DNA of 64,000 bases from assembly GCA_011364925.1 (NCBI GenBank), contig RDOA01000007.1:6936-70935 (forward strand), written 5' to 3'. The notes under the pieces were generated by a model that made no database searches, was not told the origin of the DNA, and saw nothing but the letters and a program-made list of their open reading frames with translations. A program made the translations under genes and the position numbers. This DNA comes from Promethearchaeota archaeon. Its GTDB lineage: Archaea > Asgardarchaeota > Lokiarchaeia > Sigyniarchaeales > SOKP01. Positions 25,057 through 33,286 of the stretch are shown here, piece after piece. The first letter of the stretch is position 1. The number at the start of each line of letters is the position of its first letter.

Positions 25057-28000
25057 TTATTTTGTTGATGGTACAATAACTTTCTTTTTTATTAGGCTTT
25101 CGATACCTTCGATTACTATATCTTTATTCTTTTCGTGAATCAGCTCAAAGATGGTCTCTAAGTTAAATTCTTTCTTGCTTTTCGCAATCGAATAAATGAC
25201 GTTCAAGATACGAGTCTCCATTGAGTTCAGTTCTCCTTCTTTGCGGACCTTTGCTATATAATCAGCGCTATTTATCACAAATGGTTCCTTTAAGTAAAGT
25301 TCAATGTAATTATTTATAACAGGCGGAAATAGGTCTTCAAATTCGTGAATGGCGCCGTCCCAATTACCGATTTGTTCTGATAATTCTAGCATCGCTCCTA
25401 AAGATAGATCAGAGATCAAACTCTTCAATCGGTCTGAAGCCCGCTCAGTTAAAATAAAAATTATCCGTAATTCTTGCCGATCACAGATTAAACAATAGAA
25501 ATACTTGAAATCGAGCTCTAAGATGGTACGAGTTCCGTCTTCTTCGTCTATATTTACTAAATCGCCGCTCTCTCCTCTTTTTCCAACCATTTCTTCTCCG
25601 ACGGTGATGATAGCCTGTATGAATCCCGCAAAAATCTCCTTTTTTTGTTTCTCTAAAATGGAATAACTCTTAGTATAAAGTGGAATTCCACTATCCTTAT
25701 GAATCGCAACAATAGCCTGAATGTTTTCAATATCTTTAAACCTCTGTGTCCTTGATAGCAAATCTGCTTCTCTCCTTCTCCTTCTTGGTAATATAACATA
25801 CGATCTAATACTCAAAGCCCCCAAAATAGCTATAACAGATATCGAGATTATTGTAATCAAGATTAACAAAAATGGGTTTGCTTCGCTTGGAGGTGGTGGA
25901 TTTACAATATTAAATTGGTAGATATGACTCTGAGGTTCATATCCAGGAGCTGAAAATTCGAAGAAAAGTTGATATGTTCCTGTACTATCAAGAAACACTG
26001 TATTAATTAGAATACTATAAGTTCCTGGCGTTGTTTCTGTGACGCTATAATACATTGGATTAGAAATATTAACTGCTACTGTGGCGTCAGTTATACCCTC
26101 CTCACTAATTTTTGAGTAGTAAAAGAATGTGATAGTGCTATTCTGGTTGATGATAATCGAAGAATCAGAACCTAATCTTTGTAAAACGGTATCTTCACCT
26201 AAATTAATCTCTAAAATTAATGTACTATTCTCAAATCCTATTTTATAAGACGAAATGATAATAGTATATAATCCTAAAGAACCCAAATCTGAAGTGTCCA
26301 ATATTGCGTCGTATATGCCTAATCCAACCTCGACCAGGTACCTTGTACCGCTTGTCCAATTAAATGATAAAATTGCATTTGATATTGATTCATTATTCTC
26401 TGTATCGCGAAGATATATTCTTAACGGTAAAATGTCACCTACAACACCACCCGTTCGATTGTCTGATTTTGCGTCATCTGGACGTAATAATTTAATATAA
26501 GAATCATGTCTTATTACAAAATTAGAGTCGATTCCTCCTACAGAAGTGCCGTTTCCCCAAAATATTTTAAAATTATATATTCCTCCTGTTGAATTCTGAG
26601 CTGCGATATTGAAATTTGAGAATACAACTGTACCATTCGTCATAGGTATTGCGCTATCTTCAAACCAAAGGTCCCCCTCTGGACTATATATGGTTAAATT
26701 TGCTATAGTTTGTTCGAGTCCTGGTGGTATTTCATTGGTTTTATTAATTTGTGTTTTGATCTGGGCTATATCACCTGTTTGGAATTCTGAAACCCCCCAT
26801 TGACCATTCCTTGAAATTTTTACATTTTCTTCTTGGATGAAATTAGGAGATGTAGCTTTGAAAGACCACCAACCAGAGTATAGGGCGTTTGTTTTATTGA
26901 TCTTTAAAAAGGATTCACCAATATTTCCATTCTCAAAAGGACGAGAAAGAAGCGTTGGATCTAACGCATATAATATTTGCCAATTCGAAGGTTTGCTTAT
27001 GATAAACTCAAAATCTGAGTACTGTGAAGGCATAAAGAAGTTATGCGTAAAGTACCAATACACAGTTCCGTTTTCTAAGATTTCATACGAGGTTCCTTCA
27101 AGTAGAGTTTGCCCTATCCGCGAATATGCTTCGTGATATCCATATAAGTAGGTATCTAATTCAAACGAAAGCGAAGGTGAACTTGTATTTACCGTAAGAA
27201 TGACTGGATTAACAGTCCAAGTCCCCGTTAAGTTTAAATCAGAACTACCCCATTCATTTCCCTGATTTAAAGAATACCCATCAATGGTAAGATTTATATC
27301 ACTTTGGCTAGAGTTTGCGAGAGTTGTAAGCTCTAAAGACAAGTTATCAAACCAGAAAATTTGCTGATGCAGTTCGTCAAATCCAGAATAACTTATTGAC
27401 GCACCGCTCATTATTCCAAGCGATATTCTGAACTCTTGATCATTCTTAATATCTTCAAAAATGTTCGAGGTATTTAACCATAAATCTAGATTAATACTCC
27501 CAGTACTCAACCATGTTCGTCTTCCCCCATATACTACGATATCACGAATGCCCTTAGAATAAATAATTTGATCATTGATAGCACAATACATAAAATTTTC
27601 GTTCGTTGACATAGCTGATTCTGCATAATAATCAAAACTTATATATCCATCTATTACTTGACCACGTGGGATGGTTATGTTTTGATAAATTTCTGAAAAA
27701 TCGTTTTCGTAATATGTGGAACCAAAGTATCCAGTTCCAGTTCTATATGGTTCTCCTACTAAACTAACATACATTGCTGTTTCATTATCTATACTATTCG
27801 AACCATAATTATCAACTCCAGTAGCACTATTATTTCCCCAAAGGTCGTAACTATCATAATATTCTGAACCATCATGAGTATATTCGTAATAATCTATATC
27901 ATAGCCCCACCATTGAATTGAACCATCTGAATCCATCGTAATTTTTAGATGGTTAGTTTTAATCCAGGGACTAAAAAAAGCAGGTTTATTACCGGTATCA

Positions 28001-31651: not shown

Positions 31652-32695
31652 ATGAGAAAGTTAATTGATGCGGTAATTTACACGGATATTCACGATGAAT
31701 TAGGGCCAGATCCTATTCATTGGGCGCCTCCAGATTTACCTGAATCAATAAGGATGTTAGTGGGAATTAAAACAATGACCTTGTTAACGGGAGACCAAGG
31801 AACTGTGCCTAATTCCTTATTAATCATTCCATTTCCTTCTTTAAAACTAAAAGGACTAATAAGATACATAGAAAGAGAGGATAGCAGCAAACGGGGTGGT
31901 TTTGCGCGATCAGCTATAACGTTCTTATTCAAAGAAGCCGATGATGTAATATTTTACAAGTATATGAGCTTTCTTAAAGCTCCATTTGATGAAACCGCAA
32001 GAAGGATTATCGAACTTGAGAATAATGAGGTAGAAAAAGAAAAAGTCTTTGAAGAAATCAGCTACTTAAGAGATAGTGTAGGTCAATTATTAGATGATTT
32101 CAGAGCTAAAGAAATTTCCTTCCCATCTGCTAAAGAATTTCCCGAAAGAATTATAAGAGGGGATAAGATTGTTGATTATAGATTCAAGCTCGTTGTAGTA
32201 GGTGATCCAGGTGTAGGTAAAACTTCAACAATTTTACGCTTTACCGATAATGCATTTTTAAGGACATACGTTCCTACTTTAGGAGTTAGTATTACCGAGA
32301 AAATCTTTCAAATCGATGAGAAAGCTGTAGAAGCAATCTTGTGGGACATTGCGGGTCAGAATAAGTTTCAAACGATGAGGAGGCACTTCTATCAAGGAGC
32401 CGAGGCAATCTTACTTATTTTTGACTTAACAAATCGAATCTCTTTTAACAGTATTAAAAATTGGTACGAAGATATTATGAAAAATATGGAAAAGCATCAT
32501 CACCAAATGACTGGCTATATTTTCGGAAATAAAAATGATTTGATTGATGTGCGTAAAGTTAAATTGGTTGAAGCGTTAGCATTAGCTAAAGAATTAAACT
32601 TAAAATACATTGAAACTTCTGCTATGACTGGAAGAAACGTGGAATACGCTTTTTACGACATGGCAGAAACTGTAATAAAATTAAGAATAGAATAA
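31652..32695 (+). CDS. Longin-like N-domain fused to a Rab/Ras-like small GTPase
   Basis: N-domain: VIYTDIHDELGPDPIHWAPP...LVGIKTMTLLTGD...LLIIPFPSLKLKGLIRYI, the same family as in 10160 and 17255. G1 is KLVVVGDPGVGKTS, G2 is YVPTLGV, G3 is LWDIAGQNKF, G4 is FGNKNDL, G5 is ETSAMTG. Confidence 0.9.
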   Translation: MRKLIDAVIYTDIHDELGPDPIHWAPPDLPESIRMLVGIKTMTLLTGDQGTVPNSLLIIPFPSLKLKGLIRYIEREDSSKRGGFARSAITFLFKEADDVIFYKYMSFLKAPFDETARRIIELENNEVEKEKVFEEISYLRDSVGQLLDDFRAKEISFPSAKEFPERIIRGDKIVDYRFKLVVVGDPGVGKTSTILRFTDNAFLRTYVPTLGVSITEKIFQIDEKAVEAILWDIAGQNKFQTMRRHFYQGAEAILLIFDLTNRISFNSIKNWYEDIMKNMEKHHHQMTGYIFGNKNDLIDVRKVKLVEALALAKELNLKYIETSAMTGRNVEYAFYDMAETVIKLRIE

Positions 32696-32713: not shown

Positions 32714-33286
32714 ATGGATCTTGAAGAAGTTATATTTAGAAGAAGAACAATTAGGAGATTTAAACAGGATCCTATTCCTAGCGAAGAATTAAAAAAGTTA
32801 ATCGATTACGCTCGAGTAGCACCTGCAGGGAGCAATATTCAATGCGTAGAATACATTCTTGTAGAAACTCCTTCTATGAGAGAGCAAATGTTTCCTTTAG
32901 TTAAATGGGCTTCCTCCCTTCCAAAAGAGGAAAGAACCCCAGAAAGCGGGCGAGAACCAGCAGCGTATATTATCGTTCTGGTAAACACAGATATTAAAAA
33001 ATCTTACTTTGACTACGATGTAGGAGCAGCGGTCGAGAACATTTTACTCGGCGCTGTTAACTTTGGGATAGGATGTTGTTGGATGGGTAACATAAATGCC
33101 GGTAAAATCAGGAGATTGCTAGAAATACCCGAAAACTACGAAATCAAGCATGTAATTAGTTTGGGTTACCCTGACGAAACATCAAAAATGGAACCATATA
33201 AGGATTCTTTTAAGTACTGGAAAGAAGGAAACGAAATGCACGTTCCAAAGCGAGATTTAGCTGATATAATTTTTAAGATTTTATAA
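32714..33286 (+). CDS. Nitroreductase-family protein
   Basis: RRRTIRRFKQDPIP...LIDYARVAPAGSNIQ...VGAAVENILLGAVNFGIGCCWMG. Confidence 0.85.
   Translation: MDLEEVIFRRRTIRRFKQDPIPSEELKKLIDYARVAPAGSNIQCVEYILVETPSMREQMFPLVKWASSLPKEERTPESGREPAAYIIVLVNTDIKKSYFDYDVGAAVENILLGAVNFGIGCCWMGNINAGKIRRLLEIPENYEIKHVISLGYPDETSKMEPYKDSFKYWKEGNEMHVPKRDLADIIFKIL

Follow-up and report, generated by a model that had tools for sequence, protein, structure and literature searches.

Eukaryotic longin GTPase-activating protein (GAP) complexes (folliculin, GATOR1, and C9orf72-SMCR8) control nutrient signaling and are encoded by disease genes. An archaeal protein, P0001, may bear on where these complexes came from and which GTPases they first served: it carries a longin domain in front of a Rab-like GTPase (G) domain and is encoded at positions 31652 to 32695 of a 64,000-nucleotide stretch of contig RDOA01000007.1 from a Promethearchaeota archaeon (this whole stretch is the window). 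A Gly-Pro (GP) motif has been described at strand 2 of FLCN, NPRL2, SMCR8, and C9orf72, where it neighbors the arginine finger, and both the GP motif and the Arg are reported missing from non-GAP longins, e.g., TRAPP subunits, adaptins, and DENND proteins (PMC12290439). The same survey, published in 2025, saw both motifs in Asgard "Folliculin/SMCR8 longin" proteins and asked which GTPases are their clients (PMC12290439). Fusions of longins to GTPases have also been recorded in this phylum: longin domains joined to lokiarchaeal Arf-like GTPases were reported in 2016 (as cited in PMC4917890), the asCOG survey notes fusions of longin to Rag (bioRxiv 10.1101/2020.10.19.343400), and for "Ca. Prometheoarchaeum syntrophicum" MK-D1, Tran et al. 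(2024) list L-G, L-G-R, and related architectures, with WP_147663426.1-LG included in the Rab alignment of their Suppl. Fig. 5 (PMC10933270).

A longin domain fused to a Rab-like GTPase domain

P0001, from a Lokiarchaeia-type Asgard archaeon, is a conserved protein of two domains. Its open reading frame (31652..32695, +) starts with ATG and encodes 347 aa in a window of ~32% G+C, and many of its 622 homologues are ~350 aa long, with 55 to 90% identity over 98 to 100% coverage. The longin domain (aa 1 to 155; 31652..32116, +) and the Rab-like G domain (aa 176 to 347; 32177..32692, +) are joined by a flexible linker (aa 156 to 175; 32117..32176, +; predicted local distance difference test [pLDDT], 52 to 64), in which Phe163 and Pro164 are conserved in 86% and 80%, respectively, of 59 full-length homologues, the set behind all conservation figures given here for Rab-fused proteins. 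The chain stops straight after the last G-domain helix, at residue 347, and contains no Roadblock domain. A Pfam search returned no match for residues 1 to 175 and neither a DENN nor a Gtr1_RagA match for P0001, the longin being followed by a Rab-like G domain and not by DENN.

The fold of the N-domain was examined with an AlphaFold2 (AF2) model of full-length P0001, built with a 59-row alignment, which has a pLDDT of 87.9 overall and mostly >90 in residues 1 to 150. The predicted elements are, in order, beta (residues 7 to 14), beta (18 to 25), alpha (31 to 47), beta (57 to 61), beta (66 to 76), beta (84 to 94), alpha (95 to 103), alpha (105 to 124), and a long helix (129 to 155), followed by the low-confidence linker. 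This topology, beta-beta-alpha-beta-beta-beta-alpha-alpha plus a long C-terminal helix, agrees with the definition of the longin fold. In an exhaustive structural search, residues 1 to 152 aligned with 8yqg_B (VIA-align Z score of 18.0; root mean square deviation of 2.1 Å; 144 aligned residues), from a PDB entry entitled [quoted passage not shown] and a profile of 54 N-domains matched 8yqg at an E value of 1.5e-15. On the predicted model and these matches, the N-domain is a longin, as had been suspected in an earlier reading of this DNA from its letters alone (the sequence-only reading). The query of the structure search was the full-length model and so was dominated by the G domain, with 8yqg the only N-domain match seen; because of this dominance, the absence of FLCN, NPRL2, and SMCR8 from the matches is uninformative. 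A predicted homodimer of P0001 with GTP and Mg (score, 0.23; mark, 0.42) speaks neither for nor against dimerization. A literature search found no paper on 8yqg or "LokiRagO."

Which kind of longin precedes the G domain? Pfam Folliculin (PF11704) is matched by 16 of the 54 N-domains at an E value of ≤0.1. One family member, P0253, scores 24.5 bits against a cutoff of 23.3, and more distant Asgard relatives, found by the family profile of 54 N-domains at E values of 1e-6 to 1e-12 in the genome search, reach 27.7 to 28.3 bits; the nearest named ESM-Atlas cluster carries NPR2, which is a lead only. In the AF2 model, Gly18-Pro19 (31703..31708, +) lies at the start of beta2, with Gly18 conserved in 93% and Pro19 in 90% of the Rab-fused homologues, and the Gly of this motif is invariant in all 54 N-domains of the profile alignment. 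Arg81-Gly82 (31892..31897, +) lies in the beta4-beta5 loop, with Arg81 conserved in 92% and Gly82 in 88% of the homologues, and Lys80-Arg81-Gly82 aligns with the "ARG" motif of the Folliculin-positive Asgard proteins. Judged by these profile matches and motifs, membership of the N-domain in the folliculin/SMCR8/NPRL2-type longins is well supported at the family level. Arg81 is a candidate arginine finger that may correspond to the catalytic Arg of FLCN, NPRL2, and SMCR8. The sequence-only reading had described the module as a "regulatory or localisation cassette," which holds for its reuse; the GP motif and the conserved Arg of GAP longins allow a more specific description.

The G domain is complete and, by its motifs, apparently catalytically competent. 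Pfam Ras (PF00071) matches residues 179 to 342 with an E value of 8.8e-48 (162 bits), and all 60 PDB sequence matches listed are Rabs or Rab-type, led by Rab8A (E value of 2.7e-37) and followed by Rab1A, Rab10, Rab2, Ypt1, a solved Thorarchaeota Rab, and Rab11. The structure search gave Rab3C as the best match (Z score of 25.3), with NRAS at 22.3. The motifs from which a Rab/Ras-type domain had been recognized earlier are thus present, and the class is borne out by both kinds of search. All Ras-superfamily motifs (P-loop, switch I Thr, DxxGQ, NKxD, and SA) are intact; G184, G189, K190, D232, G235, N293, K294, D296, and S323 are invariant in 59/59 homologues, the switch I Thr (T209) is conserved in 56/59 and Q236 in 54/59, and with core residues invariant or nearly so the domain appears able to hydrolyze GTP. 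The P-loop (GDPGVGKT, G184 to T191; 32201..32224, +) has Pro at the position of Ras Gly12, a replacement found in 47 of the 59 homologues (G-D-P-x-V-G-K-T). Switch II (DIAGQ, D232 to Q236; 32345..32359, +) ends in the catalytic Gln, and the G4 motif NKND (aa 293 to 296; 32528..32539, +) includes three of the invariant residues. Although Gln236 is retained, the domain itself supplies no arginine finger. The switch I, interswitch, and switch II segments partly resemble the RabF1 to RabF5 motifs, in a by-eye comparison only.

P0001 contains no cysteine, and a Cys among the last six residues is found in just 1 of the 59 homologues, which indicates that there is no prenyl anchor. The sequence-only reading had likewise noted the absence of a Roadblock domain and of a C-terminal Cys motif, and P0001 thus lacks the C-terminal Cys prenylation motif on a hypervariable tail that is a feature of eukaryotic Rabs. 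Absence of a prenyl anchor is also reported for Asgard Rabs, and the Rab paralogs of MK-D1 are said to need a GAP (PMC10933270).

Distribution of the fusion and diversity of partner domains

The distribution of the fusion was taken from genome placement in GTDB, and the taxon labels of submitters were left aside because they are inconsistent. For close homologues these labels read, in disagreement, Lokiarchaeota, Promethearchaeota, Hodarchaeota, or Thorarchaeota and are unfit for inferring distribution. The full-length fusion is present in all 54 genomes of the window's GTDB family, spanning eight genera, so the conservation in related genomes on which the sequence-only reading had staked its case is observed, and it occurs also in the single genome sampled from another family of this class. 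The ~190 other genomes sampled from the phylum, including five of the sister family within the order, did not yield it; in these families only the G domain is matched.

A profile search of 1.84 billion representative proteins (E value of ≤0.001) found the longin family in 199 proteins. Among the best 150 of these, 48 combine the N-domain with a Rab-type G domain (mostly 334 to 364 aa), 31 combine it with a Rag-type G domain (23 of them with a Roadblock-like end), 3 have a partial G domain, and in 68 no G domain was detected. The last are for the most part short proteins, which may be fragments or may stand alone. Other partners are a TrmB winged helix-turn-helix (wHTH) domain (P0185), unknown C-terminal regions, TPR, and PAS-GAF-histidine kinase. 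In a further class of ~287 aa (P0215-type), a Roadblock domain is followed by the same longin family, with matches to 8yqk (Roadblock) and 8yqg (Longin). Most members of this class keep the Arg that is missing from the crystallized 8yqg protein. [quoted passage not shown]

The window's genome holds six copies of the module: three longin-Rab, two longin-Rag-Roadblock, and one longin-PAS-GAF-histidine kinase. The last is an 826-aa protein on another contig (C6; L003:1347-3827, -), in which the longin (Arg-Gly kept, GP reduced to G) is followed by two PAS domains, a GAF domain, and the ATPase domain of a histidine kinase; the protein corresponds to the "NPRL2-like longin + two-component" fusions of Liu et al., and its frame holds a short X run from masked bases. 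A metagenomic protein of 525 aa, P0155, consists of a longin, a Rab-like G domain, and a TIR domain (TIR_2; E value of 7e-19), with its N-domain nested among the Rab-fused ones. By its domain order, this protein would couple a GTPase switch to a TIR output, an unusual combination. A different Asgard family has three genes in tandem, of 372, 375, and 166 aa (L004; G038:C1:638800-642800), each of which starts with a Folliculin-positive longin, scoring 27.7, 28.3, and 23.3 bits, respectively, on Pfam Folliculin; the C-terminal halves of the 372- and 375-aa products have no Pfam match and could be DENN-like.

Old divergence of Rab-fused and Rag-fused longins

Two further longin-GTPases are encoded in the window, P0003 (17255..18667, +), which keeps the Arg in its longin, and P0002 (10160..11671, -), which has lost it; in both, the longin is followed by a G domain and a Roadblock-like C terminus. 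The sequence-only reading placed their N-domains in the same family as that of P0001, and this kinship is confirmed: in BLASTP, the P0001 N-domain matches P0003 at 34% identity (E value of 4e-21) and P0002 at an E value of 3e-6, and the N-domains of P0002 and P0003 match each other at 5e-23. The profile-profile comparison proposed at that time as a check, run with hhalign on 18 Rab-fused versus 21 Rag-fused N-domains, gave a probability of 99.85% (E value of 7e-31; 119 columns). The label "Arf-like" given to these two proteins has to be changed: both score higher on Pfam Gtr1_RagA (E values of 4e-20 and 2e-25) than on Arf and are for this reason better named Rag-like.

How did one module come to stand before two classes of GTPase? 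In a maximum-likelihood tree of 54 N-domains, a Rag-fused clade (support, 100/98) is separate from a Rab-fused group (93/87), and the Rag-fused clade splits into an Arg-bearing P0003-type and an Arg-less P0002-type branch, both well supported. Proteins with another partner or none nest inside these two groups. The tree thus points to one old divergence per GTPase class, followed by codivergence of N-domain and G domain, and frequent shuffling between GTPase classes, tried as an explanation, was rejected in view of this single Rab-fused/Rag-fused split. The notion of domain shuffling across GTPase families, put forward in the sequence-only reading, accordingly gives way to one old event per class. 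The nested placements indicate that the C-terminal partner was occasionally replaced after the old split.

Longin-Rab paralogs with and without the arginine

Besides P0001 (paralog A), the window's genome encodes two more longin-Rab proteins, paralog B (L001:3791-4828, -), which is found on the window's contig, 2.1 kb ahead of the window, and paralog C (L002:1591-2616, +) on contig C36. Genera g1 and g2 usually hold two copies, A (P0001-type) and B, in tandem or within ~4 kb, and the order in relatives is a PEP-utilizing-enzyme gene, B, A, and a nitroreductase gene. The window's genome departs from this order: 34 kb separates A from B, the two are on opposite strands, and both Rag-like genes lie between them, so a rearrangement must have occurred. 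Several relatives carry all four longin-GTPase genes on one contig, within ~20 to 35 kb.

GP and Arg are retained in groups A and B, with the exceptions of GT in genus g3 and a missing Arg in one g4 orthologue. In group C, found mainly in genus g1, 10 of 10 sequences examined have lost the GP motif's Gly as well as the Arg-Gly loop, with the G domain intact, and their disappearance together suggests a single functional site made up of both motifs. Paralogs with and without Arg therefore exist in the Rab-fused set (A and B versus C) as well as in the Rag-fused set (P0003-type versus P0002-type). The likeness to the catalytic/noncatalytic longin pairs of eukaryotic GAP complexes is less strong in the Rab set than in the Rag set, group C being young and narrowly distributed.

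A possible built-in GAP and its alternatives

What would a longin of this type do on the chain of a GTPase? We infer, with a probability of about 0.5, that a dimerizing folliculin-type longin is a built-in GAP-type regulator of the fused Rab-like G domain. By its likeness to 8yqg, the longin would dimerize, and the dimer would provide a platform where the G domain docks. Arg81 would then act as an arginine finger, modeled on FLCN on RagC, NPRL2 on RagA, and SMCR8 on Arf, completing the active site around Gln236 and speeding GTP hydrolysis. With GAP and GTPase on one chain, the most plausible trigger of hydrolysis would be an action in trans inside a homo- or heterodimer, for which tandem paralog B or the Arg-less paralog C are candidate partners. 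The outcome would be a self-timing switch, and its localization would depend on partners, given that there is no lipid anchor. The present analysis turned up no connection between P0001 and the receptor tail at 25057..25790, which the sequence-only reading had named as an example of such a partner. The covalent fusion of a GAP-type longin to a Rab-like G domain makes that domain a candidate client, and as a small, soluble, cysteine-free protein of 347 aa, P0001 lends itself to testing a built-in off-switch.

Several points weigh against this reading. P0001 alone reaches no Pfam Folliculin match, so the folliculin link is transitive, and the N-domain profiles reach no FLCN, NPRL2, or SMCR8 chain in the PDB at an E value of ≤10. 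The identification of Arg81 with the catalytic Arg rests on the position of the motif and on alignment to Folliculin-positive Asgard proteins; 8yqg, the closest solved longin, keeps the GP motif and has no Arg at the position of Arg81, and the orthologues mentioned above as lacking the Arg (one in genus g4) or carrying GT for GP (genus g3) count here too. The AF2 model has a predicted template modeling score of 0.54 and no confident packing between the longin and G domains, meaning that the relative placement of the two domains is not predicted. Finally, longin and roadblock dimers are mostly platforms for guanine nucleotide exchange factors (GEFs) or scaffolds, not GAPs (PMC10933270).

This last point is also what recommends a different role, in which the longin would be an exchange-factor or scaffold platform like TRAPP, Mon1-Ccz1, DENN, or Ragulator, keeping the G domain nucleotide-free or showing it to effectors, with the Arg being structural. 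The fold match fits, since it is to a generic longin dimer that itself has no Arg. We nevertheless think such a platform unlikely, with the GP motif and Arg being reported absent from non-GAP longins (PMC12290439) and the family matching Pfam Folliculin and not TRAPP or Sybindin. The longin might instead serve for dimerization or localization only, pairing Rab-like domains or tethering them (e.g., to a membrane protein tail) and leaving the nucleotide cycle unaffected. P0001 has no lipid anchor, its closest structure is a dimer, and the module also precedes non-GTPase outputs (histidine kinase, TrmB/wHTH, and TPR) for which a GAP role makes little sense; yet a conserved surface-loop Arg-Gly and a GP motif would be superfluous for dimerization, and their joint loss in group C suggests a single functional site, which leaves this explanation decidedly doubtful. 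A GAP acting in trans on another GTPase, such as the Rag-like paralogs or stand-alone Rab-likes, and itself regulated by the attached Rab-like domain, would accord with eukaryotic longin GAPs, which target separate Rag or Arf proteins (PMC12290439), and with the two Rag-like longin-GTPases in the same 35-kb neighborhood, which are linked on single contigs of relatives too. However, the covalent fusion in 54/54 genomes and the codivergence of N-domain and G domain suit a cognate pair better, and the Rag-like paralogs have a longin of their own; we consider this arrangement improbable. That the fusion is an artefact of assembly or gene calling which joined two genes deserves next to no credence: the frame is uninterrupted, full-length homologues of equal length number in the hundreds and derive from independent assemblies, and two DNA studies contain at least 0.89 of the sampled words of the stretch. 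The full-length homologues and the 54/54 genomes refute it.

A bolder form of the built-in GAP, which we put forward as speculation and regard as rather unlikely, would make these proteins archaeal single-chain forerunners of the eukaryotic longin GAPs. Longins with and without Arg would pair (A or B with C in the Rab-like set and P0003 with P0002 in the Rag-like set), and a composite pocket, modeled on FLCN-FNIP, NPRL2-NPRL3, and SMCR8-C9orf72, would fire hydrolysis only on dimerization. If this were true, a single polypeptide would lie at the origin of both the eukaryotic longin GAPs and the GTPases they serve, with Rab-likes among the first clients.

Gene neighborhood

A nitroreductase-family gene (32714..33286, +; PF00881, E value of 6.5e-26) starts 18 nt past the stop codon of P0001, the spacing given in the sequence-only reading, and the gap has no T-run. 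Among 12 loci of relatives, 6 have a nitroreductase gene immediately downstream of the A orthologue, and a seventh has it after a partial copy; these loci represent two genera. From this arrangement, the gene is probably cotranscribed with P0001; a search of sequencing runs listed no RNA data set containing this stretch. Another gene, 2.6 kb from paralog B (L001:275-1201, -), joins a ferredoxin-like Cys cluster to a nitroreductase-like region. Upstream of P0001 are ordinary housekeeping neighbors: an 88-aa open reading frame in the opposite orientation and genes for an Ogg-type glycosylase and a PfkB kinase.

Comparison with known systems

The closest described protein is WP_147663426.1-LG of MK-D1, which, like P0001, has an N-terminal longin followed by a Rab-clade G domain, no Roadblock domain, no prenylation Cys, and a Lokiarchaeia-type host. 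P0001 has the "LG" Rab-clade architecture of Tran et al. (2024), i.e., a longin, a Rab-clade G domain, and nothing else. The two proteins are compared by architecture label only, the longin subtype, motifs, paralogs, and distribution not being given in Tran et al. (2024). The longin-Rab architecture is thus already listed for MK-D1, and added here are the assignment of the Rab-fused longin to the folliculin type, its conserved motifs and their disappearance from one paralog group, the spread of the fusion across the family, the tandem A and B genes, and the conserved nitroreductase neighbor. Within the window, the Rag-like paralogs have a longin homologous to that of P0001 but differ in their Gtr1/RagA-type G domain and C-terminal Roadblock-like domain, and their N-domains form a separate clade. 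The closest solved structure, 8yqg, shares with P0001 a longin with a long C-terminal helix and the GP motif; its longin comes after a Roadblock domain, whereas that of P0001 comes before a GTPase, and it lacks the Arg.

The Asgard "Folliculin/SMCR8 longin domain-containing" proteins carry the same two motifs as P0001 (PMC12290439, section 2.6). Those proteins are stand-alone or FLCN-like and are described notably from Heimdallarchaeia, whereas the longin of P0001 is covalently joined to a Rab-like G domain. By a Rosetta-stone argument, the fusions of this longin to Rab-like and Rag-like G domains name candidate clients. Among eukaryotic proteins, FLCN (acting on RagC/D), NPRL2 (RagA/B), and SMCR8-C9orf72 (Arf, with Rab8a/Rab11a also reported) share with the P0001 family a longin fold, a GP motif at strand 2, and a loop Arg, and the paralogs with and without Arg recall the catalytic/noncatalytic pairs FLCN/FNIP, NPRL2/NPRL3, and SMCR8/C9orf72. 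In contrast to FLCN, NPRL2, and SMCR8, P0001 carries its GTPase in cis, has neither a DENN nor an NPRL2 C-terminal domain, and has a putative client that is Rab-like rather than Rag or Arf.

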